Source of the DNA: Candidatus Nezhaarchaeota archaeon
GTDB lineage: Archaea > Thermoproteota > Methanomethylicia > Nezhaarchaeales > WYZ-LMO8
Direction: 5' to 3'
Assembly: GCA_030055465.1 (NCBI GenBank)
Contig: JASFYF010000001.1
Coordinates: 163,179 to 227,178, forward strand
Length of the DNA stretch: 64,000 bases
In this document: piece by piece, positions 1,871-53,142 of the stretch
Layout: every line of letters starts with the position of its first letter
How positions within the stretch are numbered: position 1 is the stretch's first letter
The notes under the pieces: generated by a model
What the model was told of the DNA's origin: nothing
The model's input: only the letters and a program-made list of their open reading frames with translations
The model's database searches: none
Made by a program: the position numbers and the translations under genes

Positions 1871-3382
1871 CTAGAGGGTATCCAGGAGGTGGCCTGGATT
1901 CATCAAGCCATTCGGGTCGAGCAGGTTCTTGATCTTCTTCAAGAGCACCAAGGTAGGTCCATGTACATACGACAAGTTGGCCCTCGAAGCCCACGGAGAG
2001 AGGTGGTACCGTGCGGCGCTTTTGATGTTTTTCCTTATCTCATCATCTAGCTCAAAAAAGGCCTTACGCATTGTTTCTAGGTCTTGCGGGTCATCCTTGT
2101 TGCACACCATTATGTGCCTGGCGTACACGTGATGGCCATGCATCATGATCCTGCCGTAGAACAAGTCATGCTTGTCGTACTTCTTGAAAACCCCTACCCC
2201 CATGCGGTAGAACTTGGGAACCTCTCTATGAGAGAGGAATGTTCCAACCCATGATATTATGCCCCCCCCCCCACGCGGAGTGGACAGCCAAGCCGGTGCG
2301 ACGTGAATCGGTTTATTGGATGCCAGCGGTAGCTCCGCCCTCTCGTCGACAGGCATAGAGCTCATGACCTCATCGTAAGGTACAAGCTGCGCTCCAGCAT
2401 CAATGGCAGCCCTACTTATGGCCTTTTCGTGGACGTTGAGAAGTTCATCACTTGGAGCAAAGACCACTATGCCGGCCGAGAAATCGGGGATCCCAGACTT
2501 AACGCGTTCGTCCGGGTCTAGGGGAACTTCATCCAGCTTCAGCCTTCGTGAGCCTGTGTGAGCTTTAGTGAACGGGTAGTTGTTAAACCATATGTCCGCT
2601 ATACCTAGGGTCCAGCTTCTCTCCGCCAACCTCTGAATTATTGGATATCCCTTCTCCACCGTTTCAGCCATCAATAAGTAGTATCTCACGGGCATCTTGG
2701 GGTACAACTTTATGGCAGCCTTGGTCACTATGCCTGTGGTTCCCTGCCAACCAACAAACAGGCCACTTATGTCCGGCAGGGGCCACCTGCCAATCCAGTA
2801 TTGGCTTGTCATGCAGCTTCCGCACTTCACTATCTCTCCTGTTGGCAGGACAACCTCCAGCCCGTTTATGGAGTCTCCACCAGTTCCAGAAATCATGCCG
2901 AGGTCGCCAAATCCTGTAGTTATAAGGTACGGAACGACGCCCGTGCCTGAAGGGGCCCATGGAACTCCAACCATCAGGTCTGGATGATGCTCTTCGAGGT
3001 ATCCCACGAGCCCAGCCCACGTTACTCCTCCTTCGACGAGCGCGTAAAGATCATCTTCGTTGACCTCCAAGACCCTGTTCATCCTCCTCAAGTCCACAAC
3101 TATTCCTCCCTCCCTAGGAATGCATAGTCCTGCAGTGCATATCCCCGAAACCCACGGTATGACGGGAATCCTTTCCCTGTTGGCCAACCTCACGATGCCC
3201 TGAACTTCTTCAACGCTGCTGGGCATCACAACGAACTCACATGTTCCCGGCTTCTCAGCCGATATGAAGTCCCAAGAGTACAGGAAAAGAACCTCGGGCC
3301 AGTCAGAAACGTGTTGAACGCCCACTATGGCTTGAAGTTCCCTTAAAATTCTTTCATGCCTATTCAAGGGCTTCACTACCAT
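1871..3382 (-). CDS. FAD-linked oxidase, GlcD/D-lactate dehydrogenase family
   Basis: VVMPSSVEEVQGIVRLAN, GIVVDLRRMNRVLEV, VEGGVTW, GLEVVLPTGEIV, GTTGIVTKA, C-terminal KIKNLLDPNGLMNPG; abuts the HdrD-like gene. Confidence 0.9.
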   Translation of the reverse strand: MVVKPLNRHERILRELQAIVGVQHVSDWPEVLFLYSWDFISAEKPGTCEFVVMPSSVEEVQGIVRLANRERIPVIPWVSGICTAGLCIPREGGIVVDLRRMNRVLEVNEDDLYALVEGGVTWAGLVGYLEEHHPDLMVGVPWAPSGTGVVPYLITTGFGDLGMISGTGGDSINGLEVVLPTGEIVKCGSCMTSQYWIGRWPLPDISGLFVGWQGTTGIVTKAAIKLYPKMPVRYYLLMAETVEKGYPIIQRLAERSWTLGIADIWFNNYPFTKAHTGSRRLKLDEVPLDPDERVKSGIPDFSAGIVVFAPSDELLNVHEKAISRAAIDAGAQLVPYDEVMSSMPVDERAELPLASNKPIHVAPAWLSTPRGGGGIISWVGTFLSHREVPKFYRMGVGVFKKYDKHDLFYGRIMMHGHHVYARHIMVCNKDDPQDLETMRKAFFELDDEIRKNIKSAARYHLSPWASRANLSYVHGPTLVLLKKIKNLLDPNGLMNPGHLLDTL

Positions 3383-4931: not shown

Positions 4932-5708
4932 CTACTCATCATTAGTTGTGTAGTACATGAGCTGCTCAGCGCGCTTAGGCTTGAACACGGGCTTGCTTCT
5001 CCCCACCTCAACGCCCTCCACGCTCATGTCCTTTAAGTCGAGCACGGGGGGTAAGTCTGGAGGCGCGTAGGGACCGCGCCGCCCCCACAGTTCCACGGCT
5101 CTTCCAGCATTGTAGGGCACCACCTCCCTGTGGGGGTCGCGCTCCTTCATCACGACCGCCGGCTTAACCTCCTCGGGGCTGGGCATGCCCTCAAGCCTCC
5201 TCGTCAACTTGAATTTCCTCCCGTACTTCTCGGCCAGCTCCTCTATGGGGCCGAAGTCGAGGGCCCTCATTGGGCAGCTGGCGACACATATGGGGATCAC
5301 GCCCTGCTCGAGCCTGTCGATGCACATCGTGCACTTCTGCGCCTTCTCTTCGAGGTTGTCGCTTGCAAATAATATTGAGCCGTAGGGGCATGCATCCCAG
5401 CAGGCCCTCCCGCACTTCACCGCCGATGGATTGCAGTACTCCTCGTCTATCAGGACCGCGCCGTACTTGTCCTCCTTGATTATCGCCTTCGCCGGACAGG
5501 CATCAGCGCACTTCGGGTTTTCGCAGTGGTAACAGGGCACCGCGACGAAGTGCACCCTCACCTGCGGCCACGTTCCCTCCTCCCACTCGAGGACCCTCAT
5601 GTACTTCACGGGCCCCGGCGGAACCTGGTTCCATGTCTTGCACGCTATCGTACACGTCTTGCAGCCCGTGCACCTGCTCTGATCAAAGAAGAAGCCGTAC
5701 TGGACCAT
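4932..5708 (-). CDS. DmsB-like 4Fe-4S subunit
   Basis: YGFFFDQSRCTGCKTCTIACK, CYHCENPKCADACP, KCTMCIDR...PICVASCP; start overlaps the stop of the upstream catalytic subunit. Confidence 0.9.
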   Translation of the reverse strand: MVQYGFFFDQSRCTGCKTCTIACKTWNQVPPGPVKYMRVLEWEEGTWPQVRVHFVAVPCYHCENPKCADACPAKAIIKEDKYGAVLIDEEYCNPSAVKCGRACWDACPYGSILFASDNLEEKAQKCTMCIDRLEQGVIPICVASCPMRALDFGPIEELAEKYGRKFKLTRRLEGMPSPEEVKPAVVMKERDPHREVVPYNAGRAVELWGRRGPYAPPDLPPVLDLKDMSVEGVEVGRSKPVFKPKRAEQLMYYTTNDE

Positions 5709-8344: not shown

Positions 8345-8441
8345 ATGCAAAACCCCATAGAACCGGTTTATAAGCCGCCTGTAAAGTACATGTCCAACGC
8401 CTCCACTTTTAAGGCTTAGGGGGGCTTTGGGGCTTCGCGCC

Positions 8442-9200
8442 CTACTCCACGGGTATCTCGTACCATATTCTGCCCTTGTAGTAGGTGACCCTGGACCTCT
8501 TCTTGACCAGCTTGGAGGCTGGAAGAGTGATGAGCCAACCAGCCACGAAGCCCCCCACATGCGCCCAGAAGGCCACGCCCGCAAAGTAGCTGGCAGCTAT
8601 GGATAAGAATCCCATCCATAACTGGTAGAGGAACCACATCAATATGAAGGTCGACGCCTGAACTGACAAAACCAGCGGCAGGAAAAAGAAGAACGTCAAA
8701 AGCCTGAGGCGGGACCTCGGAAACAAGTTCAAGTAGCCTCCAAGCAGCCCTGAGATCGCCCCGCTAGCGCCCACGCAAGGTATTAGAAGGGGATCCACAA
8801 AAACCGGTTTACCGTAGGGGTTGTAGAGTATCATAGGTTCAGCGAACGACGCCTCCACCACTATGTGGATTAGGGACGCCAGCACGCCGCTCACCAAGTA
8901 GAACGCCAGGAACTTCGCTCTTCCAAGCCTCGCCTCGAGGGGGCAGCCGAACACGTAAAGGTACAACATGTTCCCCAGAATGTGCTCCCAGCTCCCATGC
9001 ATGAACATGGATGTTATCAGCGTGTGCAGCCTCTCGCCTCGAACAACGTAGTACGGTACCATGCCTAGCTCCTCTACGGCCAGCTCAAATCTCCATTCCC
9101 CTTGAAGGTAGAAGTACAGGAACACCAAGAGGTTTACGGCTATAAGCAGCCACGTAAGAACAGGTCTCTTGGCGGTTTGGCGGTCGTGCGGTAGCGGCAT
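8442..9200 (-). CDS. Rhomboid family intramembrane serine protease
   Basis: TSMFMHGSWEHILGNM, GASGAISG (catalytic Ser), FWAHVGG (His); start trimmed to MPLPHD. Confidence 0.9.
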   Translation of the reverse strand: MPLPHDRQTAKRPVLTWLLIAVNLLVFLYFYLQGEWRFELAVEELGMVPYYVVRGERLHTLITSMFMHGSWEHILGNMLYLYVFGCPLEARLGRAKFLAFYLVSGVLASLIHIVVEASFAEPMILYNPYGKPVFVDPLLIPCVGASGAISGLLGGYLNLFPRSRLRLLTFFFFLPLVLSVQASTFILMWFLYQLWMGFLSIAASYFAGVAFWAHVGGFVAGWLITLPASKLVKKRSRVTYYKGRIWYEIPVE

Positions 9201-15926: not shown

Positions 15927-17195
15927 TTGAGCGGCAGCTTCATCGATGAAGTGATTAAGGTGGATGACGCAATCAGACTGGCTGCCTCGCTCCTCAAGGT
16001 GCCGTCCCGAGAGGTTGAGGTTCCACTGCAGGAGGCCGCTGGACTGATAGCCTCTAGGAGCATCTCAGCCCCATACGATATGCCCCTCTACGATAGGAGC
16101 GCTGTCGACGGCTACGCCGTCCACGCAGAGGACACCTACGGGGCCTCGCTTCACGGCGCCGCGGAGCTCAAGGTTGTCGGCAGGGTGACCTCCTCCACAA
16201 GCATTGAGGAAGTCTCGAAGACATCTCTCAAGCTCAGCGAGGCCGTCGAGATCCTGACGGGGGGCCCCCTGCCACCGGGCGCCGACGCCGTAGTCATGTA
16301 CGAGGACGTCACTCGTATGAACGATAAAATCTACGTTCACAGGGCCCTGCCGAGGTGGGCAAACGTGTCGAGGAGAGGGGAGGACTTTAAGGAGGGCGAA
16401 ACCATCGTTGAGAAAGGCGTGCTCCTAGCGCCTTGGCATCTAGCTGCGCTGGCAGCGTTCGGCTTCAGCAGGGTTCACGTATACGATAAGCTGAAGGTGG
16501 GCATCTTGGCCACCGGCGGCGAGTTGGCGGAGCCCTTGCAACCGGTACCCCTACGCAAGGGGGTTTACAACAGCACGTCGACCATGATCATGAGTTGCCT
16601 TTCAGGCAGAAGATTCATCGAAGCCGTCTACCTCGGAAGAGTTATGGACGACGTGGAGCGCATCGCCGAGGGCATTGAAGGCGCATTTAGAGCCGGCTTC
16701 GACGCGGTTGTGACGACGGGAGGCACGGGCGTAAGCGGGGACGACGTTACGACGCGTGCAGTTGAGAGGGTGGGCACCATTGCGGTGAGGGGCGTGGCGA
16801 TTAGGCCTGGGAGGCCCACAAGCATAGGCGTAGTTGAAGGGAAACCGGTATTCATGCTGTCGGGCTTCCCAGTTGCTGCCCTCGTGGCGCTTGAGTTCGT
16901 CGTTCTACCGGTGATTTACAGGTTGTTTGGGTCGACCCCACAGCCCAAGCCAATCGTCAAGGCCAAGCTCACCAGGAGGCTCGCCAACGTCGTCGGCCAT
17001 AGGTCCTACGTGAGGGCCAAGGTCTTCCGCCGCAACGGTGAACTGATTGTTGAGCCCCTGAGGCTAACCGGCTCAGGGGTCTTGTCAACCCTTGTAAAGG
17101 GCAACGGGATAATAGAGGTTCCGGAGGGCTTGGAGGGCTACGAGCCCGGCGAAGAAGTTAACGTCATATTGATCGGAGGCTTGGAGGGGATGTAG
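15927..17195 (+). CDS. moeA: Molybdopterin molybdenumtransferase MoeA
   Basis: DRSAVDGYAV, TGGPLPPGADAVVMYED, ATGGEL, TTGGTG, GVAIRPGRP, LSGFPVAA. Confidence 0.93.
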   Translation: MSGSFIDEVIKVDDAIRLAASLLKVPSREVEVPLQEAAGLIASRSISAPYDMPLYDRSAVDGYAVHAEDTYGASLHGAAELKVVGRVTSSTSIEEVSKTSLKLSEAVEILTGGPLPPGADAVVMYEDVTRMNDKIYVHRALPRWANVSRRGEDFKEGETIVEKGVLLAPWHLAALAAFGFSRVHVYDKLKVGILATGGELAEPLQPVPLRKGVYNSTSTMIMSCLSGRRFIEAVYLGRVMDDVERIAEGIEGAFRAGFDAVVTTGGTGVSGDDVTTRAVERVGTIAVRGVAIRPGRPTSIGVVEGKPVFMLSGFPVAALVALEFVVLPVIYRLFGSTPQPKPIVKAKLTRRLANVVGHRSYVRAKVFRRNGELIVEPLRLTGSGVLSTLVKGNGIIEVPEGLEGYEPGEEVNVILIGGLEGM

Positions 17196-17416
17196 CCTTG
17201 GCCAAGGTTTTCCACGAACTCGTGCCCCTAGAAGACGTGGAGGCCGCGCTCTCCAAGCACTTGAGGTTGGAGCCGTTAGGGGTCGAGGAGGTTGACCTCG
17301 TAAACTCGTTGGGGCGAACGCTGGCGGAAGACGTTTACTCCCCGATCGATTACCCGCCCTTCGACAGGTCTGAGGTTGACGGCTACGCCGTCCACGCAGA
17401 GGACACCTACGGGGCC
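16107..17416 (+). repeat. Exact 39-bp match between the two moeA paralogs (16107-16145 = 17378-17416)
   Basis: GACGGCTACGCCGTCCACGCAGAGGACACCTACGGGGCC in both genes. Confidence 0.85.
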
Positions 17417-19153
17417 GATGAGGAGAGGCCCGCAGTGCTCGCGGTTACCGGAGGGTCCCCCGTAGGCCGCGCACCTCAAGCTCCTCTGGGCAGAGGAGAG
17501 GCCTTCGAGATAGCGACCGGGGCCGTTGTGCCCCGCGAGGCGAACGCTGTGGTCATGGAGGAATACACCGACAGGGAAAATGGCAGAGTCAAGGTTTACA
17601 GGCCGGTTGCCCCCGGCGAAAACGTGGTTCACGCCGGATCTGACATCTCTCTGGGGGACCTGGCTCTATCCAGGGGAACCCTCCTAGGCCCGCGCGAGCT
17701 GGGGCTTCTAGCTGCCTTGGGCAAGCGCAGGGTTAAGGTCTACCGAAAAGTCAAGGTGGCTGTCTTCTCAACCGGGAACGAGGTTGTCGAGCCGGGCGAA
17801 AAGCTGGAGCTGGGCCAGATCTACGATTCGAACAGCTTCTTCATAGTGTCCTCCCTCTTGGAGATGGGCGCTGAGGCCCGATACGCTGGGCACCTGCCGG
17901 ACGACTATCAATCAATTTTGCATGCTCTTAGATGCGAAGTTGAAGAAAGCGACGTGATAATAACGAGTGGGGGCACATCCGCTGGGGCTGGAGACCTCGT
18001 GTACAGGGCCTTTGACGACCTTGGGAGACCCGGCCTGATAATCCATGGAGTTAAGGTTAAGCCCGGCAAGCCCACGGCTATAGCTGTGGCCCGCGGAAAG
18101 CTTTTGATAGGGCTTCCCGGCTTCCCACTGTCCTGCGCCATGGTGTTCTTGACCGTGGTTAGGCCCCTGATAGCCAAGCTGATGGGCCTTGAGCTGGATG
18201 GATACCAGTCGGTGAAGGCAACCTTCCCGTTCAGGGTTAGAACCGGTCAAGGCAAGACCTGGCTTATACCCGTAAGCCTCGTGAGCTCGGCCAACGGTTT
18301 GGTCGCGTACCCTGTAACCATGAAGTCCGGGGACGTGTCGCCGCTCGTGAGCGCTGAAGGCTACGTCCGGGTCCCTGAGGGCAAAGAGCTCCTTGAGGGG
18401 GGAGAGACGGTGGATGTCTTCTTGATGTCAAGGAGGACCACGACGCCCGAGCTCACGATAATCGGAAGCCACGACGTAGCGCTCTACCGAGTGATAGAGG
18501 TGATGAACATGCGCGGAAGGTGTAAGGTAATAGCGGTGGGCTCCCTAAGGGGGCTTCAAGCTGCAGCTTCAGGTGAAGCCGATTTGGCGCCCGTGCACCT
18601 CCTAGACGAGGAGACTGGCGACTACAACCTGCCATTCATACGCAGGATGAACCTTGAAGGCAAGGTTAGGCTGATAAGGGGTTATGCTAGAAGGATCGGC
18701 TTTATATCTAGGCCTGGCCTCGATGTAAACGGCTTCGAGGACCTCTTCACTAAAGGCTACGCCTTCGTCAACAGGAATAGGGGTTCGGGCACCAGGACCT
18801 TCATCGATGTTAAGCTCAGAGAGGCTTGTGCCGGCCTCCACCTGAGGCTCGAGAAGGTGCCATCCCTTATAAGGGGTTACACGTACGAGGTGAAGACCCA
18901 CACAGCCGTGGCGGCAGCTGTAGCCCACGGGAGGGCCGACGTAGGCGTGGGCATCGAGTACGCAGCGAGGGCCTACAACCTGAGCTTCAAGCCGTTAACT
19001 TGGGAAGTAATGGACTTCGCCGTGCCATCCGAAAGGCTGCAAAAGGCCTCCGTGGAGAGGTTTCGAGAAGCCCTCAGGTCGCGCCGCCTCGCTGAGGCGC
19101 TTAAGGCGATTCCGGGCTACGAGCTCCTCAAGAACAGCGGGGAGCTCATCTAA
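17198..19153 (+). CDS. moeA: MoeA fused to C-terminal PBP/LysR-type oxyanion-binding domain
   Basis: FDRSEVDGYAV, STGNEV, SGGTSAG, KPGKP, GLPGFP; C-terminal IIGSHD, VGSLRGL, NRNRGSGTR, THTAVAAAVAHGRADVGVG. Confidence 0.93.
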   Translation: MAKVFHELVPLEDVEAALSKHLRLEPLGVEEVDLVNSLGRTLAEDVYSPIDYPPFDRSEVDGYAVHAEDTYGADEERPAVLAVTGGSPVGRAPQAPLGRGEAFEIATGAVVPREANAVVMEEYTDRENGRVKVYRPVAPGENVVHAGSDISLGDLALSRGTLLGPRELGLLAALGKRRVKVYRKVKVAVFSTGNEVVEPGEKLELGQIYDSNSFFIVSSLLEMGAEARYAGHLPDDYQSILHALRCEVEESDVIITSGGTSAGAGDLVYRAFDDLGRPGLIIHGVKVKPGKPTAIAVARGKLLIGLPGFPLSCAMVFLTVVRPLIAKLMGLELDGYQSVKATFPFRVRTGQGKTWLIPVSLVSSANGLVAYPVTMKSGDVSPLVSAEGYVRVPEGKELLEGGETVDVFLMSRRTTTPELTIIGSHDVALYRVIEVMNMRGRCKVIAVGSLRGLQAAASGEADLAPVHLLDEETGDYNLPFIRRMNLEGKVRLIRGYARRIGFISRPGLDVNGFEDLFTKGYAFVNRNRGSGTRTFIDVKLREACAGLHLRLEKVPSLIRGYTYEVKTHTAVAAAVAHGRADVGVGIEYAARAYNLSFKPLTWEVMDFAVPSERLQKASVERFREALRSRRLAEALKAIPGYELLKNSGELI

Positions 19154-43134: not shown

Positions 43135-43845
43135 ATGGCAGCTTTAAGGGCCGTCGCCTACTCAAGGACCTCAACCGATATGCAAACGACCGAGCAGCAG
43201 ATAAACACGATAAAGGACTACGTTGCCACAAACGGCATTGAAGTGGTGGCGTGGTTCAGCGACCCCGACGTTTCTGGTGCCATACCAGCGCTTGAGCGCG
43301 AAGGCTTCAAAGAAATGCTGCACTACATAGAGCAAAACGGTATAACAGCCATAGTCGTCTACGCCATAGATAGGCTTGGAAGAAGCTTCATGGACATATT
43401 CAAGACCCTGAGTGAGCTTGACAAGAAGGGGATAACCGTCATAAGCATAAGGGACAGGTTCCTTCAAACCCTCGACCCAAACATCAGGAGGCTTGTGCTG
43501 GCAGTTTTAGCATGGGCCTCCGAGTACGAGGTTAAGCTGACGAGGGAGAGGGTTAGGCTAGCCATGAAGAGGAGGGAGGTTCAGGAGAAGATCGAGAAGA
43601 TAAGGAAGGTCAACAAGATCTACGCGGAGACGAGGCAGCTCATAAAGCAGCTGTACACCCAAGGGTGGAGCCTCCGCAAAATATCGAAAACCATGAACCT
43701 CAGCCTCTACGCCGTCCGTAAAGTTCTTGTGTGCGAAGGAGTTTTAGATCCCGGAAAGCAGAGCTGCCCCCGATGCGGACATAAGCTGGTGTGGGACGAC
43801 ATAGAGAGCACATACAAGTGCAGGTCCTGCGGCTACAAGTCATAG
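43135..43845 (+). CDS. Small serine recombinase (resolvase/invertase type) with C-terminal HTH and Zn ribbon
   Basis: AVAYSRTST (catalytic Ser), IDRLGR, EYE...RER, HTH QGWSLRKISKTMNLS, CPRCG...CRSCG. Confidence 0.9.
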   Translation: MAALRAVAYSRTSTDMQTTEQQINTIKDYVATNGIEVVAWFSDPDVSGAIPALEREGFKEMLHYIEQNGITAIVVYAIDRLGRSFMDIFKTLSELDKKGITVISIRDRFLQTLDPNIRRLVLAVLAWASEYEVKLTRERVRLAMKRREVQEKIEKIRKVNKIYAETRQLIKQLYTQGWSLRKISKTMNLSLYAVRKVLVCEGVLDPGKQSCPRCGHKLVWDDIESTYKCRSCGYKS

Positions 43846-43977: not shown

Positions 43978-44784
43978 ATGAGCGGCGCAGCCACATCAAC
44001 TTTCACCATTGAGGTCCTATGCAAGACCGCCCTCTCCAAGAGCGGGATCTACGGCGTCGACTACTCGTTGAATCCCTACTTCGGCTGCGAGCACTCCTGC
44101 ATCTACTGCTACGTTCCAAGGTTCACGCCCCACAGGCTTAAAGGCAGGCGCTGGGGCCGCTTCGTCGAGGTTAAAACTAATATTTCGAAGGTTCTAGCCG
44201 GAGAGCTGAAGGCCCTGTCAAAGGGTAGAATCCTTGTAAGCAGCGTGACCGACCCCTACCAGCCCGCGGAGCGTAGATACCAGTTGACGCGGGGGTGCCT
44301 GGAGCTGCTGGCGGGAAGGGGCTTTGAGGTCACGGTGCTGACGAAATCAAACCTCTTCACTAGGGACTTAGACGTGATAGACGCAAGGGGCTTCGAGGTG
44401 GGAGTTACCGTGACGACGCTTCAAGCCTACAGGGAGCTCGAGCCGGGAGCGCCTCCGCCCTTAGCGAGGCTTAAGGCCTTAGAGGAGGCTTCCGAGAGCG
44501 GCTTCAAGACGTTCTTGTTTCTAGGACCATTAATACCAGGAGTGGTTGACGAAGAAGTGGAGGAGCTTCTCGAGTTGGCCCGCGCCTCCGGGGTTGGGTA
44601 CGTGATAGTCGACAAGCTCAACACGAGGGGGGACGTCGCCCAATCAATCCTTGAAGCGCTTAAGGAGCCTCAACGCACGAGGTTCGCCAAGGCGCTCGCC
44701 GAGAAGAAGTGGGCCTTCAACTTTAAGGGAAGAATCGCTGAGCTATGCCGTAAGCTAAACCTACAATGCGACTTCTGCTTCTAG
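43978..44784 (+). CDS. SPL-family (spore photoproduct lyase-like) radical SAM protein
   Basis: LNPYFGCEHSCIYCY, SSVTDPYQPAE, LTKS, EPGAPPP. Confidence 0.88.
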   Translation: MSGAATSTFTIEVLCKTALSKSGIYGVDYSLNPYFGCEHSCIYCYVPRFTPHRLKGRRWGRFVEVKTNISKVLAGELKALSKGRILVSSVTDPYQPAERRYQLTRGCLELLAGRGFEVTVLTKSNLFTRDLDVIDARGFEVGVTVTTLQAYRELEPGAPPPLARLKALEEASESGFKTFLFLGPLIPGVVDEEVEELLELARASGVGYVIVDKLNTRGDVAQSILEALKEPQRTRFAKALAEKKWAFNFKGRIAELCRKLNLQCDFCF

Positions 44785-45368
44785 AAATTGACAGCATCAA
44801 TCCGCGCTGAGCCGTGCAGGTGGCCAAGGCCTTCACGCGTCCGCCTCTCCTCGTAAACCTCATCTATTAGGATCTCTAGGGCTTTTAATGGCTCGTAGCC
44901 CCCCTCAAATATCAGCGAGTTCAGCTTGGAGTAGTGATACTTGACCTCTTGATAGTAGGAGCTTAGAAGCTCCCACGGAGGCTCGATGACCTCCCCAAAG
45001 CCAACCCCACGACAGCAGTAGTCAAGGTTAATCAGGTCTTGCCTTCCAGGACTGTAAGGAATGAACGGGTAAAGCCTACATCGCATGGGCCTAGCCGGGT
45101 ATACCCTACAGTATGGCTTATCGTTGAACTCCAAGAACGCGCAAAGCCCTCCCCTGCTGGCTAGAACCGGTATCGCCACCATGTCCGCTATTACCGCCGC
45201 CACATACCTGCCCTTCAGCTCTCCCCAATGTAAACCTAGGAATTCAGCTACCCTACAAACATCAAAGGCTGTGAGGCTAACGTTAGGTCCGTGGCAGCAG
45301 CTGCCGCACCTCGAGCACGACAGCTTTACCTTTCCGCCTACAGCCACCTCTCCGTATTGGTGCACCAT
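44781..45368 (-). CDS. YkgJ family cysteine-cluster protein (second copy)
   Basis: CSRCGSCC, CAFL, CRVYPARPMRCRLYPF. Confidence 0.85.
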   Translation of the reverse strand: MVHQYGEVAVGGKVKLSCSRCGSCCHGPNVSLTAFDVCRVAEFLGLHWGELKGRYVAAVIADMVAIPVLASRGGLCAFLEFNDKPYCRVYPARPMRCRLYPFIPYSPGRQDLINLDYCCRGVGFGEVIEPPWELLSSYYQEVKYHYSKLNSLIFEGGYEPLKALEILIDEVYEERRTREGLGHLHGSARIDAVNF

Positions 45369-45488: not shown

Positions 45489-46706
45489 TTAACCCCTGCG
45501 CTTAAGGGTTATGGACAGCGCGAAGGCTATTGAAGTCAAGGTCACGCCGAAGCCCATCAGGTACGTGGGCCTGTAGCTGCCGTACATATCGGCTACGAGG
45601 CCTCCCACCGCCGGGGAGGTCAGCAAGCCCACGCCGCATAGCAGCGTCCACAGCCCGGTTATGGAGCCCATAACCCCCCAGCCGTAAATGTCCTTGACCA
45701 AGGCTGCGTATAGCGGCCACATGGCTCCGTAGCCTATGCCGACCACACCGTTCCACAGTGCTATGTCAATGTAGTTTTGCTGGCGCACCATTAGCGCGGA
45801 TCCGAGTAAGCCAATGGCTGTTATAGAGTTGCAGAGCGCTATCGCCAGCCTCCTACCAGTCTTATCCGACAATATTGGTATGACCAACGTCCCAATGATG
45901 CCCACAAAACCTATCACGCTGAATAGCGCGGTGGAGGCCCCTCTATCGAGCATCAACTCCAAGTAGGCATAGTTCTTAACAAAGGTCATTGGAACCATTA
46001 TCGCGAACGACGCGAGCATGTAGGAGAGACCTCCAAGCCAAAACCTCTTGTCACTCAGTATCGAAGTAAAGCCTTTAACGTGCTCTTTAAGGCTCTTTGC
46101 GGGCGCGTCGCCCACCTCTGGCTCCTCAGCGAGGAGCACTAGGGGCAAGAGCAAAGCTAAAGATGCAGCGCCTAAAATCAGCCAGCAACCCCTCCAACCT
46201 ACGTAGGGCACCAACATCGGTATCACGAAGCCTAAAGTGCCGAAGCCCACGTTGGGGCCCAGCTGGAGTATCCCCAACGAGAAGCCCCTCCTCGCCGGGT
46301 AAACCCTCTGAACCCACACGGTCAGAGGGGTCCAACACACCGAGGCGCCAATGCCGGATATGCCGAGAAACAGCGCTCCACTCCAATCCGAGAACGCGAC
46401 GCTCATGAGGGCTGCTCCTATGCCGAGCAGCGGCAGGAACGCTAGGGTGGTCCTTTTTATGCCCTTAACATCCACTAGGAAGCCCACGAAGACCGACGAC
46501 ACAGTGTAGAGGGCTAGACAGGTAGTGTAGATAAGCCCTGCCTGCGCGTTAGTCAAGTTCAGCTCCCTCATTATTTCGGGCAGCAACATGCTGTAGGCGT
46601 ACCTTATGCCGTAAGACATGAATGCAGCCGAAAAGCACGCTGCAAGTATTAGGAGTGGACGCTTAACGCACTTCACCTCTCCGCTCCCGGCCGCCTGAAC
46701 CATCAT
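45489..46706 (-). CDS. MFS transporter
   Basis: About 12 TM; GFLVDVKGIKR, LSDKTGRR, YGWRG-like motif. Confidence 0.9.
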   Translation of the reverse strand: MMVQAAGSGEVKCVKRPLLILAACFSAAFMSYGIRYAYSMLLPEIMRELNLTNAQAGLIYTTCLALYTVSSVFVGFLVDVKGIKRTTLAFLPLLGIGAALMSVAFSDWSGALFLGISGIGASVCWTPLTVWVQRVYPARRGFSLGILQLGPNVGFGTLGFVIPMLVPYVGWRGCWLILGAASLALLLPLVLLAEEPEVGDAPAKSLKEHVKGFTSILSDKRFWLGGLSYMLASFAIMVPMTFVKNYAYLELMLDRGASTALFSVIGFVGIIGTLVIPILSDKTGRRLAIALCNSITAIGLLGSALMVRQQNYIDIALWNGVVGIGYGAMWPLYAALVKDIYGWGVMGSITGLWTLLCGVGLLTSPAVGGLVADMYGSYRPTYLMGFGVTLTSIAFALSITLKRRG

Positions 46707-46732
46707 GCTTCACCTTAAATCAAGGTTGAAGG

Positions 46733-47176
46733 TCAAGTTAAAAGCTCTAAGCGCAGGGCCCCGCTCATGCAGTGCTTCACGCAGAAGGGCATCTCCGATG
46801 GCTTCCCGGCGCAGGTATCACACTTCTCAATCTTCTTGGTCTCCAAGTTGAACCATACCGCCCGAAGGGGACATGCATCGATGCATGCCCTACAGCCGTT
46901 GCACCTATCCGCCTTTAAGGCCACCACGCCCTCGTCGTCCCTTTCAAGCGCCCTTGCAGGGCAAACCTCAATGCATGGAGCCTCAACACATTGGTTGCAA
47001 AGCCTTGCATTGAACTTCATAACCGCCTTTCCACGCGCGCCGAGCAGGATTGCCTTCTCTATCTTTATCCTGAAGGCCCCTACTGGCAGCTTGTGGAGCT
47101 GCTTACACGCAACCTCGCACGAGAAGCAGCCAGTGCAGATATCAGGGTTAAAAGAGAGAACCCTAGCCATTTTCAT
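46733..47176 (-). CDS. 4Fe-4S dicluster protein (FdhB/DmsB-like, short)
   Basis: CTGCFSCEVAC, CNQCVEAPCIEVCP, CNGCRACIDACP, KCDTC...FCVKHC; ATGA overlap with the upstream gene. Confidence 0.92.
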   Translation of the reverse strand: MKMARVLSFNPDICTGCFSCEVACKQLHKLPVGAFRIKIEKAILLGARGKAVMKFNARLCNQCVEAPCIEVCPARALERDDEGVVALKADRCNGCRACIDACPLRAVWFNLETKKIEKCDTCAGKPSEMPFCVKHCMSGALRLELLT

Positions 47177-49338
47177 TCTCCTCCAGCCCTGCGAACCCTG
47201 CAGAGCAGGCCGCGCAGGACCCTTGTGCCCACTATCGGTTCATATCCGTATGGGGGCTTCATCGGTATTATTGAGTTCACATTGTACTTTACGGCGCGGT
47301 CCTCGTAGGTCTCGCCTTCAGGGTACCACCACAAGGCCTGGGCCGATACAACCCTCGGGTTAATACCGTAGCTTAGGAAGGCCTTCAGCTTAACCTTGCC
47401 TTTACTCATGGGGGTTTCGACGTACACCCAGTCGCCCTCCTCGATGCCGTAGGCGCTGGCGGTTTGAGGGTGCATCTCGAGTAGGGGGTTGGGTAGAAGC
47501 TCGCGCAGATAGGGAACGTTGTGGCCCATTGATTGATACGACGCTATGTGCCTCGAGCCGGTGATCAGTATCAACGGGTACTCCGAAGCCAGCTCAGGCG
47601 TTGAGTAGGGGCTCTCGGGAGGCTCAACGTACTCCGGCAGCGGGTCGTACCCGTACTTTTCAAGCAAAGTCGAGTACAGCTCGCATTTACCCGTCGGGGT
47701 CCTGAAGCCCGGTTTGCCGTCCTCCCTCAGCATTCCCCTCTCGTACCTTCTCTCAGCTAGGACCTCAGATGCGATGTACCCCTTCTTCTTGAAGTCCTCA
47801 AACGTTAAGCCGAGCTCCCGAAGCCTGTAATCCAGAAGCTCCCTGTAACTGGAAACCGGAAACGGAATCTTAAGCTTCATCCTTCTCATAAGCTCGAAGA
47901 GCACTTCGTTGTCGTCCCTGCACTCGTGGAGCGGCTCTATAACCCGCTGCCGCGCAGCTATGAAGTTGGTGTAGCAGAAGGCATCGCATATATCCTCGCA
48001 CTCCAAGTATGTGGCTGAGGGCAGGACGTAGTCGGCTAGCTCGGCCGTGGGGGTCATGAAGAAGTCCATGACGACCAACAGCTCGAGCTTCTTTAACGCC
48101 TCCACGACTTCCCTGGTGCCCTCGAAGTTAACGGCTAGGTTGGAGGTAGCTACGAGGGCTTTAATTGGATATGGCTTGCCGGTCAGCATGGCCTCGAAGA
48201 CGCTGGGAGGATGAGGCAAGCACCTGAAAGAGGTTGGACCCGAGAGTAGAGGATACTTGTGAGCCCCTATGGTCTTCCCCTCAACTTCTGGAGGCAGGCG
48301 AAGCTGCCTCTTCAAGTTCATGTAGGTGAGCTTTATCGGGTATTGCGGAAGCTCGGCTCCTCCTCTCACGTTGAGGTTTCCGGTTATGGCAACCAGAATG
48401 GATATGGCCCTGCTGGCCTGCACGGAGTTGTAGCTCATCGAGACTCCAAGGTGCGAGTGAAGGGCTGCGGGCTTCAAAGTGGCGTAGAGCCTGGCCGCTT
48501 CGACTATTTGCTGCCTCGGAACCCATGTTATCTCCTCGACCTTCTCGGGAGGATACTCCTGAGCCCTCTCAGCCAAGGCGTTAAAGCCGTAGCACCACCG
48601 CTCCACGAAGTCCGCATCGTAGAGCCTCTCGTTGATTACGACGTTGAGCATCCCCAGAGCCAAGGCTCCATCCGTCCCAGGCCTCACCTGGAGCCACAGA
48701 TCCGCCATGGATGCAAGCTCGGTGAAGCGGGGGTCAATGACTATAAGCTTAGCTCCTCTCTTCTTGGCCTCAACTATCCTCTTGCCGAGGGCCGGAAAAG
48801 TGTGAACGGGGTTGTACCCCCACAGAACCACGCACCTGCTCACCCTGAAGTCCGGAACCCCAAGCTCGCACGTGTAGGCTTCACCGCACGTTAGTAGGTC
48901 CGCGGTCAAGTGGGGGGTGTAACAATAATGGCAGTTGCCTATAAGCTGGTTTGGCGAGCCGAGAGAAGCCAGGAAAATGCTCAGCCCCACGGCCACCCTC
49001 TTCGGGTAGGTTCCATATGATATGGATATGGATTCAGGCCCGTACTTCTCCTTTATTTCTAATAGCTTCGAGCACACCTCCTCGAGGGCTTCTTCCCAGC
49101 TTATCCGCCTCCACTTGCCTTCACCCTTCTCGCCAACCCTTTTAAGGGGGTGCTTCAACCTGTCAGGGTGATACAAGGTCTGCAGGAACGACAAGCCTTT
49201 GGGACACATGTAGCCCTCGCTGAGGGGATGATTCGGATCTCCCTCCAGCCTTACCACCCTGCCATCATCGGCAACGTGGGCTAAAACCCCGCACTCGCAC
49301 ATGCATCCCCCGCACACGGTTCTAACCACGCGGGGCAT
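47173..49338 (-). CDS. Mo/W-bisPGD oxidoreductase, acetylene-hydratase-like branch, no Tat signal
   Basis: CGGCMCEC...CPKG, LGSPN...CHYC, IDPRFT, RPGTD, GKPYPIKA, DFFMTPTAELADYVLP, GYDPLP. Confidence 0.88.
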   Translation of the reverse strand: MPRVVRTVCGGCMCECGVLAHVADDGRVVRLEGDPNHPLSEGYMCPKGLSFLQTLYHPDRLKHPLKRVGEKGEGKWRRISWEEALEEVCSKLLEIKEKYGPESISISYGTYPKRVAVGLSIFLASLGSPNQLIGNCHYCYTPHLTADLLTCGEAYTCELGVPDFRVSRCVVLWGYNPVHTFPALGKRIVEAKKRGAKLIVIDPRFTELASMADLWLQVRPGTDGALALGMLNVVINERLYDADFVERWCYGFNALAERAQEYPPEKVEEITWVPRQQIVEAARLYATLKPAALHSHLGVSMSYNSVQASRAISILVAITGNLNVRGGAELPQYPIKLTYMNLKRQLRLPPEVEGKTIGAHKYPLLSGPTSFRCLPHPPSVFEAMLTGKPYPIKALVATSNLAVNFEGTREVVEALKKLELLVVMDFFMTPTAELADYVLPSATYLECEDICDAFCYTNFIAARQRVIEPLHECRDDNEVLFELMRRMKLKIPFPVSSYRELLDYRLRELGLTFEDFKKKGYIASEVLAERRYERGMLREDGKPGFRTPTGKCELYSTLLEKYGYDPLPEYVEPPESPYSTPELASEYPLILITGSRHIASYQSMGHNVPYLRELLPNPLLEMHPQTASAYGIEEGDWVYVETPMSKGKVKLKAFLSYGINPRVVSAQALWWYPEGETYEDRAVKYNVNSIIPMKPPYGYEPIVGTRVLRGLLCRVRRAGGE

Positions 49339-49409
49339 TCCTCATCGATTAGCATTTATTGGATATCTTTAGGCTATTTTAGTGTTGCGAAAAAGCTGTA
49401 GGAAGCCCA

Positions 49410-50093
49410 CTAAAGGACGAGCCTTAAAGCTTCCTCCGCCCTTCCTCTGAACACTACTCTGCCCTCATCAATCAACAGGGCCTCATCCGCCACGGACAAC
49501 AGCGGAAGCGGGTCATGAGTTGAGACAACTATCGCTGAGCTATCCTTTAAGTCCTCTAGAACCCGTACAACGCTTCTACGCTTGGATAGGTGCACGTGGG
49601 CTAGGGGTTCATCGAGGAAGAGGTACCTAGGCTTCAGGGCCAACGCCCTCACCAAGGCGATGAGCTGCTTCTCGCCGATGGACAGTCCGCCGACAGCTCT
49701 CTCCTCAGCCAAATGCTTCATGTTGAGCAACTCAACTAATCTCAGGACCTCCCTTAGCGCCTCCCCCTCTCTTAAGCCTCGAAGCTTGAAGCCGTAAGCC
49801 AAGTTGTCGAGTACGGAGCCCCTTATAACGCGCGGGGATTCGTGGACGTAGATCACCTCCCTTCTAACGCGTAGCTTATCGGGGTCTTTGAGTGACCAGT
49901 AGTCCACTCCATCCACCATTACCTTCCCTTTGGTGGCCTTGTATAGAAGAGAGGACACCTTAAGCAAGGTTGTTTTGCCGCTTCCGTTGGGCCCCATGAC
50001 CACCGTTAGGCCCCTATCGAACTGAGCGTCAACGTCACGTAGGACGTGGCGGTCGCCGGAGTAGCTGAACCAGATCTTCCTCAACTCTATCAT
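49410..50093 (-). CDS. tupC: Tungstate ABC transporter ATPase
   Basis: GPNGSGKTT, LSIGEKQ, FLDEP; in operon with tupA and tupB. Confidence 0.8.
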   Translation of the reverse strand: MIELRKIWFSYSGDRHVLRDVDAQFDRGLTVVMGPNGSGKTTLLKVSSLLYKATKGKVMVDGVDYWSLKDPDKLRVRREVIYVHESPRVIRGSVLDNLAYGFKLRGLREGEALREVLRLVELLNMKHLAEERAVGGLSIGEKQLIALVRALALKPRYLFLDEPLAHVHLSKRRSVVRVLEDLKDSSAIVVSTHDPLPLLSVADEALLIDEGRVVFRGRAEEALRLVL

Positions 50094-50737
50094 GAGAGCC
50101 TCCTCTTGATCAACCTACTGGACATGGCAACAACTACTATCGCCAGGAGCAACAATAAGCCTAAGGTCAAGGCCTTGTCGAATTCCCCTTTCTCCACCTC
50201 GAGGGCTATGGCCGTCGTTAAAACCCTCGTGGTTCCCTTAATGTTTCCACCAACGAGCAAGGCGACTCCGAGTTCCCCTATAGCCCTCGCGAAGGCGACC
50301 AGCACCACCACGAGCACTTCGCCAAGCACTTCCTTAACTACAAGCCCATATGCCTGAAGCTTGCTGGCACCTAGGGACACCGCCAGCTCCCAGTAGTTGT
50401 CGATGGCCCTAGCGAAGAGCTCGTAGGAGAGCGATATGAATAGCGGAGTTATCAAAGCCGCCTGCCCAATGATTATTGCTTGTGGGGTGTAAAGTAGGTT
50501 TAGCCATCCCAGGGGCCCAGACCGACTGAAGGCCAAGTACACGAGGAGCCCTACCAAGACCGCCGGAAAGCCCACCAACGCGTTGAAGACCCCCACAACC
50601 GGGTCTCGCCAACGGGACCTCGAGGATGCTAGCTTAACTGATGCGGGTATGCTCCAAGCAGCTGCGAGGAGCGTGGCGCTGGAGGATATTAAGAGGGACC
50701 TCGCCACCACATCGAGGATTTCGCCGCACATGGTCAT
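50090..50737 (-). CDS. tupB: Tungstate ABC transporter permease
   Basis: VLVGLLVYLAFSRSGPLG, AFARAIGELG, VGGNIKGTTRVLTTAI. Confidence 0.88.
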   Translation of the reverse strand: MTMCGEILDVVARSLLISSSATLLAAAWSIPASVKLASSRSRWRDPVVGVFNALVGFPAVLVGLLVYLAFSRSGPLGWLNLLYTPQAIIIGQAALITPLFISLSYELFARAIDNYWELAVSLGASKLQAYGLVVKEVLGEVLVVVLVAFARAIGELGVALLVGGNIKGTTRVLTTAIALEVEKGEFDKALTLGLLLLLAIVVVAMSSRLIKRRLS

Positions 50738-51633
50738 CCACCGAGGGCCTGCTTCTGCCAACAGAGCGTAAGCATCGGGATGACCCCTTTAGCTGGGTGG
50801 AAGATCTGCAGCCCATACTCCCCCATGCCGTAGGAACTTATCGCGGCTTGGCACTCATCAGATGTCAGAAACTCCACAAACAGCCTTGCCATGCCGTAAT
50901 TGACTTTGAACTTGTTTGGGTTAACTATGTAGGCGCTGTACACGTTCACGAGTTCCTCGCCTTCATTAATGAGCACCACGAGTCGATCAACTGCGCCCTC
51001 ACTCCTCAACTTAATGTAGGTGCCTACATCGCTTAGCGTGTACGCTCCTAAATTGTCGGACACTAGCAGAGCCTTAACCATATTTGACCCCACATCAAGG
51101 TACCATTCACACCCCTCAACGTTTAGGCCCGCCTCCCTCCAAAGGGCCAACTCCCTCTCATGCGTCCCAGAGCGATCACCCCGGCTCACGAAGACAGCTT
51201 CACCCCTCAGCCCAGCATCGTAAATCCTCTTAAAGGCCTCCACAGGGTCGGCTAGGCCGCTGATTTTCGCCGGATCCTCTTTCGGCCCAAGCACCACGAA
51301 GTAGTTGAATGCGAATATCCTCCCCTCCACCAGGAAGCCACCATCCAAGTACCTCTTCTCCAAGTTTGGCGCGTGGGAGAGGACGACGTCCACGTCACCT
51401 CTCGACGCCAACTCAAGTGACTGCCCGCTGCCCAGAGGCATCAAGTGTATGGTTATACCGTAAGCTCGAGAGAAGTCATCGACGAGCCTGTCAAGTAGGC
51501 CCGTGTAGTACAGGCTCGTGGTGGTGGCCACCCTGAGAACACCTCCATTGCTGGAGGTGACAAGCATGCAGTATACGCTTGCCACCACTATTACGGTAAA
51601 CGCCGCGGCGGCAGCAACCTTAAATGCGTTCAT
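50734..51633 (-). CDS. tupA: Tungstate-binding protein
   Basis: RVATTTS signature, GSGQSL...GDVD...SHAP, FVSRGDRSGTH, YTLSD. Confidence 0.92.
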   Translation of the reverse strand: MNAFKVAAAAAFTVIVVASVYCMLVTSSNGGVLRVATTTSLYYTGLLDRLVDDFSRAYGITIHLMPLGSGQSLELASRGDVDVVLSHAPNLEKRYLDGGFLVEGRIFAFNYFVVLGPKEDPAKISGLADPVEAFKRIYDAGLRGEAVFVSRGDRSGTHERELALWREAGLNVEGCEWYLDVGSNMVKALLVSDNLGAYTLSDVGTYIKLRSEGAVDRLVVLINEGEELVNVYSAYIVNPNKFKVNYGMARLFVEFLTSDECQAAISSYGMGEYGLQIFHPAKGVIPMLTLCWQKQALGG

Positions 51634-51741: not shown

Positions 51742-53142
51742 CTACCTCACTGTTTCTTCATGATAATGCAAGGGCTCCCCCAACGCTAAGCGCGCCACCT
51801 CACCTATCGCCTCCGCGTAGGTTGGATGAGCATATACTGCCTCCGCCAGGTCTGCTAACGTTAAGCCCTTGCTCATCGCAACGGCCAGCACGTGTATCAC
51901 TTCAGCAGCCTCGTTGCCCACAATCTCAGCGCCCAAAATCCTGTTGGTTTCATGTTCGACAACAAGCTTGACGAATCCGTCGCTCGTCTTGGATAACGCC
52001 GAAATGTTTCTGCCAAGGGCCGAGTAGGGAAGCCTATAGCACCTACACTTAAAGCCAAGTTTGCCGGCCTCTTGCTCCGTCAAGCCCACCAACGCCACTT
52101 GGGGGTGCGAGAAGGCCACCACCGGTACGGGTTCGCGAAGCGCCTTAGATGTCCCCTTCCATATGATGTCTGCGACTACTAAACCATCCCTGAAGGCCTT
52201 GTGGGCCAGCTGCGGTGGACCGGCAACGTCGCCCGCTGCAAACACGTTCGGTACGCTGGTTCGAAGTTGAGCATCGACTTTAACGCCGGCGCCATCATGC
52301 TTTACTCCCAAGGTCTCGAGGCCTAAACCCTCAACGTTCGCCTTCCTGCCCACGGCTACTAGAACCTTCTCTACCTCTATCTCCCTTTGCAATCCGCCTG
52401 ATGACACGAGCACCTTAGCTCCGCCGTTAACCCGGGAGACGCCCTTAACGGCTGAATTGAAGTATGTTTTAACCCCCAGCTTCTTCATGTATCTTTCCAC
52501 CACCGCTGATGCATCCCGGTCCATAAAGTAAAGGGGCCTTTCAAGCACCTCTATGAGGTGCACCTCTTTGCCTAGCATGGCTAAAGCCGTCGCCACCTCT
52601 ACGCCGACGGCTCCTGCACCCACCACAGCTATGGATTCCGGTGGAGATCTAAGCCTGAAGAACTCTCTGTTGGATATTATTGTCTCCCCATCAAATGGCA
52701 CTCCTGGTAATGGTCTAGGATCGGAGCCTGTGGCTATAACTATGAACTTGCATTCCAGCCTAGTGCTCGAGGATCCCTCAACGACTTCGACTTCCCGGTT
52801 GCTGATTAGCTTCCCATGGCCCTTGTAAACGTCGACGCCCTGAAGTAGGATCTTTACGCCTTCACGCGCCCTGAAGGCAGCCCTCTCCAGGTGCTTCATG
52901 ACCAATTGCGGCGATGTAATCTTGAAGTCTAGCGAGAAGCCCAAATGCCTTAGCGAGGCGCCATTAAAGAGGGCCTCGGCAACATCCATGAGCGCTTTGG
53001 ATGGTATACACCCGTAGTTCGCACATTCTCCACCTAGCTCCCCCCTCTCGATGAGGGCCACTTTGAAGCCGCGCCGGCTGAGCGAAATGGCAGCAACATA
53101 GCCTGCTGGGCCGCCGCCTATCACCACAACGTCGTACAGCAA
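51742..53142 (-). CDS. lpdA: Dihydrolipoamide dehydrogenase
   Basis: GGGPAGY, GGECANYGCIPSK, GAGAVGVE, AHKA, HPTYAEA. Confidence 0.92.
   Translation of the reverse strand: MLYDVVVIGGGPAGYVAAISLSRRGFKVALIERGELGGECANYGCIPSKALMDVAEALFNGASLRHLGFSLDFKITSPQLVMKHLERAAFRAREGVKILLQGVDVYKGHGKLISNREVEVVEGSSSTRLECKFIVIATGSDPRPLPGVPFDGETIISNREFFRLRSPPESIAVVGAGAVGVEVATALAMLGKEVHLIEVLERPLYFMDRDASAVVERYMKKLGVKTYFNSAVKGVSRVNGGAKVLVSSGGLQREIEVEKVLVAVGRKANVEGLGLETLGVKHDGAGVKVDAQLRTSVPNVFAAGDVAGPPQLAHKAFRDGLVVADIIWKGTSKALREPVPVVAFSHPQVALVGLTEQEAGKLGFKCRCYRLPYSALGRNISALSKTSDGFVKLVVEHETNRILGAEIVGNEAAEVIHVLAVAMSKGLTLADLAEAVYAHPTYAEAIGEVARLALGEPLHYHEETVR

Follow-up and report, generated by a model that had tools for sequence, protein, structure and literature searches.

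An Fe-S-partnered relative of acetylene hydratase and the catechol dehydroxylases encoded beside a putative tungstate importer in a Nezhaarchaeota archaeon

Two groups of described proteins lie close to the enzyme considered here, a member of the Mo/W-bis-pyranopterin guanine dinucleotide (bisPGD; DMSO reductase/MopB) superfamily encoded in a 64,000-nt stretch of DNA, hereafter the window, from a Candidatus Nezhaarchaeota archaeon (assembly GCA_030055465.1, contig JASFYF010000001.1, positions 163,179 to 227,178). One is acetylene hydratase (AH) of Pelobacter/Syntrophotalea acetylenicus (structure 2e7z), a single-subunit enzyme that is active only after reduction to W(IV). What we take to be its active site comprises the cluster ligands Cys9, Cys12, Cys16 and Cys46, Lys48, the tungsten ligand Cys141, Arg606, Asp13 and a ring formed by Ile14, Ile113, Ile142, Trp179, Trp293 and Trp472, the residue numbers having been checked against the letters of the 2e7z sequence. 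The other is the group of catechol dehydroxylases from Gordonibacter, which carry no Tat signal, are smaller than the Eggerthella enzymes, and share their loci with genes for a small 4Fe-4S partner and for a neighboring major facilitator superfamily (MFS) transporter (Maini Rekdal et al., 2020; PMC7028382). Their authors placed them closest to AH and noted uncharacterised homologues in environmental bacteria "and even Archaea"; the superclade tree of the same eLife study includes a Thauera aromatica AR-1 sequence from a cluster for the anaerobic degradation of 3,5-dihydroxybenzoate, and tungstate did not block dehydroxylation of 3,4-dihydroxyphenylacetic acid (DOPAC) by G. pamelaeae (PMC7028382). 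The archaeal enzyme resembles both groups and falls in a clade of its own, within which it belongs to a subclade that keeps a four-cluster Fe-S protein as its partner.

The gene for this enzyme lies in a run of six minus-strand genes, ordered tupA-tupB-tupC, bisPGD enzyme, Fe-S protein and MFS transporter, each an open reading frame over the coordinates given for it here. An original prediction made from the sequence had described this run and quoted several motifs, and it was accurate in every detail. The catalytic subunit (47173..49338, minus strand) has 721 amino acids (aa), and its membership in the superfamily is borne out by a four-domain fold and by three Pfam domains (Molybdop_Fe4S4, Molybdopterin and Molydop_binding) that all score above cut-off. 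Its N-terminus, MPRVVRTVCGGCMCEC, reads MPRVVRTVC9GGC12M13C14EC16, with Cys45 as the fourth ligand of the FS0 cluster, and an LGSPN stretch at residues 126-130 precedes N135-C-H-Y-C139-Y. Because an in-frame TGA is located 6 nt upstream of the ATG, neither an N-terminal extension nor a Tat leader is possible, which indicates a cytoplasmic location. The FS0 cysteines, Lys47, Cys139 and Arg596 are conserved in the alignment. Of 121 aligned sequences, 118 retain Cys139, while position 136 is variable (Ala in 47 and Cys in 25), which identifies Cys139 as the metal ligand. On the same grounds, we rejected Cys136 and His137 as a ligand dyad like that of formate dehydrogenase (FDH).

In both sequence and fold, the enzyme is AH-like, as had been proposed. 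A ranking of PDB sequences is headed by AH (410 bits, 38% identity), followed by PsrA (286 bits) and then by formate dehydrogenases. An AlphaFold (AF2) model built on 28 homologues (pLDDT 90.6, pTM 0.92) superposes best on 2e7z (TM 0.90) and next on PsrA (TM 0.83), with many structures of the family falling between TM 0.73 and 0.90. The archaeal enzyme and AH have in common their size, a cytoplasmic site without a Tat signal and a Lys positioned between the cluster and the pterin; AH Cys9/12/16/46, Lys48 and Arg606 are equivalent to Cys9/12/16/45, Lys47 and Arg596, and Cys139 aligns with the tungsten ligand Cys141. The residues that characterize the AH pocket differ. Asp13 is replaced by Met13, and the ring Ile14/Ile113/Ile142/Trp179/Trp293/Trp472 becomes Cys14/Tyr111/Tyr140/gap/Ser295/gap, such that the pocket, as judged by alignment to AH, would be lined by Met13, Cys14, Tyr111, Tyr140, Ser295 and His296. 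Our copy of the AH sequence was rebuilt from a printed alignment and is without the last 68 residues.

The original prediction took Met13 to exclude hydratase chemistry. That the enzyme cannot work as AH does was upheld, given that Trp179 and Trp293 are absent as well, but Met13 by itself is not telling, since no relative of the enzyme carries Asp at this position and His is the usual residue. Among its 120 best database relatives, position 13 is occupied by His in 81 and by Met in 28 and in none by Asp; when 95 relatives from genomes are included, Asp13 occurs in 0 of 215. A search seeded with AH returned a different set of sequences, in which all 116 full-length relatives possess Asp13, and Trp179 and Trp293 are kept throughout the Asp13 clade (117 of 117 sequences, AH included). 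The subclade containing the archaeal enzyme has a gap and Ser/Thr at the corresponding two positions. Asp13, universal in the relatives of AH and absent from those of the archaeal enzyme, is thus best viewed as the signature of a separate and large AH clade, and on these sequence criteria the archaeal enzyme is not an acetylene hydratase. The AH relatives (P0121-P0240), whose full-length members all keep Asp13, Trp179 and Trp293, include proteins labelled Bradyrhizobium, Paraburkholderia and Cupriavidus, and AH-type active sites therefore seem to be far more widely spread than the known acetylene fermenters. A literature search for acetylene-hydratase-like proteins and Asp13 homologues gave almost nothing.

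AH functions as a single subunit, whereas the archaeal enzyme has a four-cluster Fe-S partner. The partner gene (46733..47176, minus strand) encodes 147 aa (Pfam Fer4_11), including 16 Cys arranged in the translation as four C-x2-C-x(2-8)-C-x3-C groups. Its best NCBIfam matches are TtrB, DmsB and NrfC, all below cut-off, and its relatives in the PDB are the four-cluster subunits of AOR, Psr, Nar, Arr and Pcr. The stop codon of the enzyme gene (TGA) overlaps the start codon of the Fe-S gene (ATG) as ATGA, and in related loci the gene after that of the enzyme encodes an orthologue of the partner (49-54% identity). Neighborhoods of the Met13 subclade comprise 11 distinct arrangements, drawn from the window, archaeal contigs (74-77% identity) and bacterial contigs (53-55%), and the partner is adjacent or fused in 10 of them. 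In the archaeal loci the partner gene immediately follows that of the enzyme, in three bacterial loci it immediately precedes it, and L112 encodes the two as a fusion; fusions are also found in P0014, P0015 and P0076. In the sister classes the partner is much rarer, following 4 of 18 and 20 of 66 genes by a crude gene calling that was the same for all. The translational coupling of the two genes and the retention of the pair in 10 of 11 arrangements argue for real electron transfer, and agree with the earlier proposal that the Fe-S subunit implies redox catalysis.

The phylogenetic placement of the enzyme was examined with two trees. When 335 sequences were analysed with FastTree and the tree was rooted on PsrA, the Asp13 sequences formed a monophyletic clade (120 rows, support 100) nested among His13 lineages, and the Met13 sequences a group of 30 rows (support 100). 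An IQ-TREE analysis of 84 sequences (LG+C20 PMSF, SH-aLRT) included three Gordonibacter sequences (Cldh, Dodh and one more) from the alignment that accompanies PMC7028382. It recovers a superclade (98) consisting of the Cldh/Dodh clade (100), small His13 groups, the AH clade (100), which is joined by a few non-Asp sisters, and a clade of 44 rows (100) that contains the archaeal enzyme and is hereafter termed the query clade; the Met13 subclade (13 rows, 100) lies within the latter. AH and the archaeal enzyme thus reside in separate, fully supported clades. Likewise, Cldh, Dodh and the third Gordonibacter sequence group with two environmental sequences in a clade with a support of 100 that is separate from the query clade, and PsrA is a distant outgroup. 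BLAST scores against the archaeal enzyme (Dodh, 451 bits; third Gordonibacter sequence, 443; Cldh, 424; AH, 395 with the shortened copy noted above; PsrA, 278) indicate that it is roughly equidistant from Dodh, Cldh and AH. Members of the query clade share the motif CxxC[H/M]CEC...[D/N]xHxC[YFW], and a search of the eLife alignments for such motifs found no members of this clade, probably because gaps break the motifs.

Within the query clade, the identity of residue 13 covaries with that of other residues predicted to be near the metal. His13 pairs with Asp135 in 71 sequences and Met13 with Asn135 in 26, with only 3 mixed cases, and position 296, which adjoins the residue aligned with AH Trp293, is Arg in 77 of 81 His13 sequences and His in 27 of 28 Met13 sequences. 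Additional traits specific to the Met13 subclade are Cys136, Cys157, Tyr111 and a seven-residue insertion at 535-541. The joint replacement of two ionisable residues near the metal suggests that the substrate or the proton path differs from that of the sister groups. The novelty, which we regard as modest, lies in the definition by these residues of a Met13/Asn135/His296 subclade that has an obligate Fe-S partner and occurs in Bathyarchaeia-like archaea and in a small number of bacteria.

The original prediction inferred an uncharacterised soluble W-dependent pathway and overlooked a precedent for the enzyme, the Gordonibacter catechol dehydroxylases, which have the same architecture (PMC7028382) and are as close to it as AH is. 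All three elements of the Dodh/Cldh build (absence of a Tat signal, a 4Fe-4S partner gene and an adjacent MFS gene) are present at the archaeal locus, and the proteins are 36-38% identical, a similarity equal to or slightly greater than that with AH, and belong to the same superclade. They differ in that Cldh and Dodh read GCH[EN]GC, lacking the first cluster Cys and having His13, where the archaeal enzyme reads CGGCMCEC; in that the ligand Cys of the former resides in D-S-C and that of the latter in N-C-H-Y-C; in length (788-799 aa versus 721 aa); and in host (gut Actinobacteria versus an archaeon). PsrA/PhsA (T. thermophilus 2vpw), the second-best structure, also has a Cys ligand and is paired with a four-cluster beta subunit like that of the archaeal locus. 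However, Psr is Tat-exported and anchored by NrfD, whereas the archaeal enzyme is without a leader and its cluster holds no NrfD gene. Placement in a characterised clade such as FDH, which would have run counter to the original prediction, is likewise not observed: the Fdh-alpha model TIGR01591 scores 333 bits against a cut-off of 666 and the PhsA model 332 bits against 694 (NCBIfam), and the Sec/Cys-His dyad of FDH is missing, Cys139 being followed by Tyr140. These sequence comparisons place the archaeal enzyme outside the AH clade, the Cldh/Dodh clade, FDH and Psr/Phs.

The genes that surround related enzymes offer some indication of metabolic context. Across 80 genome loci of the wider family (36-49% identity), recurrent neighbors include phenylacetate-CoA-ligase-like proteins, other acyl-CoA (including aryl-CoA) ligases and IclR regulators, as well as phosphoenolpyruvate-utilising enzymes, hydantoinase-like proteins and sigma-54 regulators, a set that points to anaerobic aromatic-acid metabolism. 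Neighbors in the Met13 subclade include a carboxylesterase, an old yellow enzyme-type reductase, RidA and an alpha/beta hydrolase; a second bisPGD gene is found next door in 5 of the 11 arrangements. At a locus of a relative from the same archaeal order (L123; genome G010, C1:160001-180000), genes for a 475-aa decarboxylase of the UbiD family and a 559-aa AMP-forming CoA ligase are located directly upstream of a 776-aa homologue, suggesting aromatic-acid chemistry for that group of paralogues. Elsewhere in the genome of the archaeal enzyme itself (L122; C1:374001-394000), its 45% paralogue faces a three-gene block that is kept in two related genomes (L119 and L120) and encodes a four-cluster Fe-S protein, a 531-aa SdhB-like/CCG fusion and a 491-aa SdhA/FrdA-like flavoprotein.

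Taken together, we judge it probable, with some reservation, that the enzyme and its partner constitute a soluble, cytoplasmic alpha-beta tungsten (or molybdenum) oxidoreductase that serves as a ferredoxin-linked reductase of a polar, presumably organic, substrate. By analogy, it most probably works as the soluble dehydroxylases do, namely as a cytoplasmic reductase wired to its partner. Electrons from a cytoplasmic donor of low potential, most likely ferredoxin, would enter through the four [4Fe-4S] clusters of the beta subunit and travel by way of the alpha-subunit cluster (Cys9/12/16/45) and Lys47 to the metal, which is bound by the pterin and by Cys139. A polar substrate would then be reduced at the metal, most plausibly with removal of an oxygen or hydroxyl group, a proposal modelled on the Gordonibacter catechol dehydroxylases, the only characterised group that is built in this way. 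The MFS protein would probably carry the substrate or product, and TupABC would supply tungstate to this enzyme and to other W/Mo enzymes of the organism. De-oxygenation of an aryl compound or organic acid as the specific reaction is offered tentatively, and we think it more apt to be wrong than right. A further proposal is similarly doubtful: that the Met13/Asn135/His296 subclade represents either a distinct tungsten-dependent, ferredoxin-driven remover of hydroxyl or oxo groups from an imported phenolic or other organic acid, which would be the first archaeal aryl dehydroxylase, or a remodelled Met/Cys/Tyr pocket whose reaction would be new to bisPGD enzymes.

Several observations weigh against a dehydroxylase-like reductase. 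The query clade is not the Cldh/Dodh clade, and the order of the groups within the superclade has a support of only 86 or is left as open forks. The Met13 subclade has moreover exchanged the His13, Asp135 and Arg296 that its sisters keep, and its chemistry may differ from theirs. One orthologue, L126, has no adjacent Fe-S gene and sits instead between a methylase-like gene and an open reading frame of unknown function. Each of the organic-substrate neighbors in the Met13 subclade was encountered only once, and markers of class I benzoyl-CoA reductase are absent from the contig. UbiD genes, which are widespread among archaea, do occur there but are uninformative. Different loci do not carry orthologous MFS genes beside the pair (35% and 21% identity to the MFS protein of the window), and that protein lacks the carboxylate-binding Arg280 of the lactate transporter SfMCT. 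Finally, the sequence is compatible with either tungsten or molybdenum and with electron flow in either direction.

This last point bears directly on the possibility that the same alpha-beta complex operates oxidatively, as a water-dependent hydroxylase or dehydrogenase of an organic substrate from which electrons leave through the beta subunit to ferredoxin or another acceptor. A four-cluster wire is neutral with respect to direction, the Thauera aromatica AR-1 sequence in the superclade tree comes from a 3,5-dihydroxybenzoate degradation cluster, and CCG/Hdr-like and HdrA-like genes that could accept electrons lie beside the pair in related loci. No acceptor gene, however, is conserved beside the pair across arrangements, and the only soluble alpha-beta members with biochemical support are reductive, such that we regard an oxidative role as rather unlikely. 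A cytoplasmic reductase whose substrate is a compound of sulfur, selenium or arsenic, whether inorganic or organic (for example polysulfide, persulfide, thiosulfate or an S-oxide), strikes us as more improbable still. Such a soft substrate might suit a pocket rich in Met and Cys (Met13, Cys14, Cys136 and Cys157), and the subclade-specific Cys136 and Cys157 co-occur with Met13. PsrA is the second-best structure (286 bits, TM 0.83), and PhsA is among the top NCBIfam matches at 332 bits, a score that nevertheless falls below half of its 694-bit cut-off; there is also neither a Tat signal nor an NrfD anchor, and PsrA is a distant outgroup in trees that group the query clade with enzymes of organic substrates. 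Sulfur-related genes do occur nearby, including one for a dihydrolipoyl dehydrogenase-like disulfide reductase upstream of tupA, a Pyr_redox and rhodanese protein in L112, a Psr-like ABC set in L113 and CCG proteins in L101, L102 and L106, but these vary from locus to locus.

The two remaining explanations would retain the chemistry of a known relative. An AH-like, non-redox hydratase or hydro-lyase could in principle use another acid residue (His137, Glu15 or a Tyr), with the beta subunit doing no more than holding the metal in its reduced state. Consistent with such a role, AH has the nearest solved fold and itself requires reduction to W(IV), although a permanent four-cluster wire would be costly for mere activation. 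Given also that Asp13, Trp179 and Trp293 are all absent, and that no partner fusion was retrieved among AH and its 116 relatives whereas the partner of the archaeal enzyme is strictly kept and sometimes fused, we consider a hydratase highly improbable. An FDH supplied by an oxalate/formate-type MFS transporter would be in keeping with the 333-bit match to the Fdh-alpha model and with the distant similarity of the MFS protein to the oxalate/formate antiporter family. That match amounts to only half of the 666-bit cut-off, only the N-terminal half of the enzyme aligns to FdhH, Cys139 is followed by Tyr rather than His, and FDH structures rank below AH and PsrA, leaving this explanation with next to no likelihood. 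The ferredoxin-linked reductase therefore remains the reading that we favor.

The MFS gene (45489..46706, minus strand; 405 aa, Pfam MFS_1) starts 26 nt downstream of the Fe-S gene. Its nearest NCBIfam families, SfMCT lactate transporter (107 bits) and oxalate/formate antiporter (87 bits), are far below cut-off, and its best PDB match is SfMCT (40 bits), in which Arg280 aligns with Thr. A role as a lactate or monocarboxylate carrier is not supported, given these low scores and the Arg280-to-Thr difference. The proposed synteny of enzyme and transporter holds to the extent that an MFS gene is found beside the pair or three genes away in 4 of the 11 arrangements, including a 35%-identical MFS gene convergent to the enzyme pair in P0004-type loci; the transporters, however, are not orthologues, and they vary in position and orientation among loci. 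Outside the window, at C1:924619-927645 (minus strand), an AOR-family tungstoenzyme gene (614 aa) is preceded, at a distance of 16 nt, by one for an MFS paralogue (33% identity, 388 aa), and the pairing of an MFS transporter with a tungsten enzyme is thus repeated in this genome.

The transporter genes at the opposite end of the cluster encode a tupA-like tungstate-binding protein (50734..51633, minus strand; 299 aa with an N-terminal hydrophobic segment, Pfam PBP_like_2), a tupB-like ABC permease (50090..50761, minus strand; 223 aa, Pfam BPD_transp_1) and a tupC-like ABC ATPase without a TOBE domain (49410..50093, minus strand; 227 aa, Pfam ABC_tran). TupA is the sole NCBIfam match of the binding protein (155.9 bits against a 400-bit cut-off), and its best PDB matches, 3lr1 (154 bits) and 5my5, are tungstate-binding, with a full-length alignment that preserves the TTTS and SRGDxSGTH stretches. 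The permease exceeds the cut-off of NF038017 ABC_perm1 (190 bits) and falls below those of TupB (113 bits) and ModB (85 bits), and the ATPase has generic matches to ModC and WtpC (approximately 104 bits, below cut-off). The gene order is the A-B-C order of TupABC systems of the Eubacterium acidaminophilum, Geobacter and Desulfovibrio types, and the motifs of the binding protein align with theirs; scores below the equivalog cut-offs reflect the divergence of archaeal sequences.

Our analysis did not sustain the original view that this importer is the enzyme's own. The genome is a single 1.02-Mb contig with an estimated completeness of 67%. It carries four AOR-family genes and six to seven bisPGD genes, the latter being the query, a 45% and a 42% paralogue, a fragment with a TAG codon and three more distant genes. 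The fragment (C1:127778-128308, minus strand), with 38% identity to residues 8-190 and the TAG in frame, is a possible pseudogene. A tblastn search of the contig with Mod/Wtp components from related loci identified no second Mo/W transporter. As the only such importer found alongside approximately ten W/Mo enzymes, TupABC would represent a general tungstate supply rather than a dedicated one, and it probably has its own promoter. Conserved linkage of the enzyme to tup genes was also rejected: a Mo/W oxyanion ABC transporter is nearby in 3 of the 11 arrangements, with tup occurring only in the window and Mod/Wtp-type systems with TOBE in L107 and L111 (the latter also carrying MobA- and XdhC-like genes), and none of the 80 wider-family genome loci has a TupA or TupB homologue. 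Tungsten is, on the available sequence data, the likely metal of the enzyme.

Two tandem moeA genes lie elsewhere in the window (15927-19153, plus strand), the second of which (651 aa) is fused to a PBP_like domain of the oxyanion-binding type. A second gene pair (4932-8584, minus strand) encodes a 958-aa bisPGD protein without a recognisable Fe4S4 match, whose best solved relatives are TorA/DMSO reductases (212-181 bits) and pyrogallol hydroxytransferase (154 bits), and a 258-aa Fer4_11 protein; as judged from these matches, it is a second soluble, anchorless molybdo- or tungsto-enzyme pair of DmsAB-like character. With two moeA genes, tupABC and two bisPGD enzyme pairs, the window can be regarded as a molybdenum/tungsten cofactor island. 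It further contains, at 584-3382 (minus strand), genes for a FAD_binding_4 protein (503 aa) and a CCG and Fer4_8 protein (428 aa), a pair resembling GlcD/GlcF or D-lactate dehydrogenase.

A 71-nt spacer (49339..49409, minus strand) separates tupC from the enzyme gene and contains, in addition to the in-frame TGA noted above, an A/T-rich stretch, AAAATAGCCTAAAGATATCCAATAAAT, that could be an archaeal TATA element. Together with a TTTATAA element approximately 30 nt 5′ of the tupA ATG, this stretch suggests that the cluster comprises two transcription units. Immediately downstream of the cluster are a serine-recombinase-like open reading frame (43135-43845, plus strand) and a PA0069/Rv2578c-type radical SAM gene (43978-44784, plus strand), neither of which is conserved beside related enzymes. 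Synteny with an Lpd-like gene (51742-53142) and a CxxCxxCC gene (44781-45368) was examined and discarded, as it is kept in no related locus.

The AH/catechol-dehydroxylase group numbers thousands of proteins in anaerobes of sediments, aquifers and hot springs, and substrates are known only for AH and a few gut dehydroxylases. In this family the lack of Asp13 is the rule, and the locus described here is a compact example of one branch, uniting genes for a catalytic subunit and its obligate Fe-S partner with those for a transporter and a putative tungstate importer, and it provides sequence markers that separate this branch from AH and from its nearest sisters. As it stands, the enzyme is a well-defined orphan that establishes no new principle. 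If its substrate were phenolic, the enzyme would offer Bathyarchaeia a route by which plant- or lignin-derived aromatics serve as electron acceptors, and would extend reductive dehydroxylation to archaea and to tungsten.

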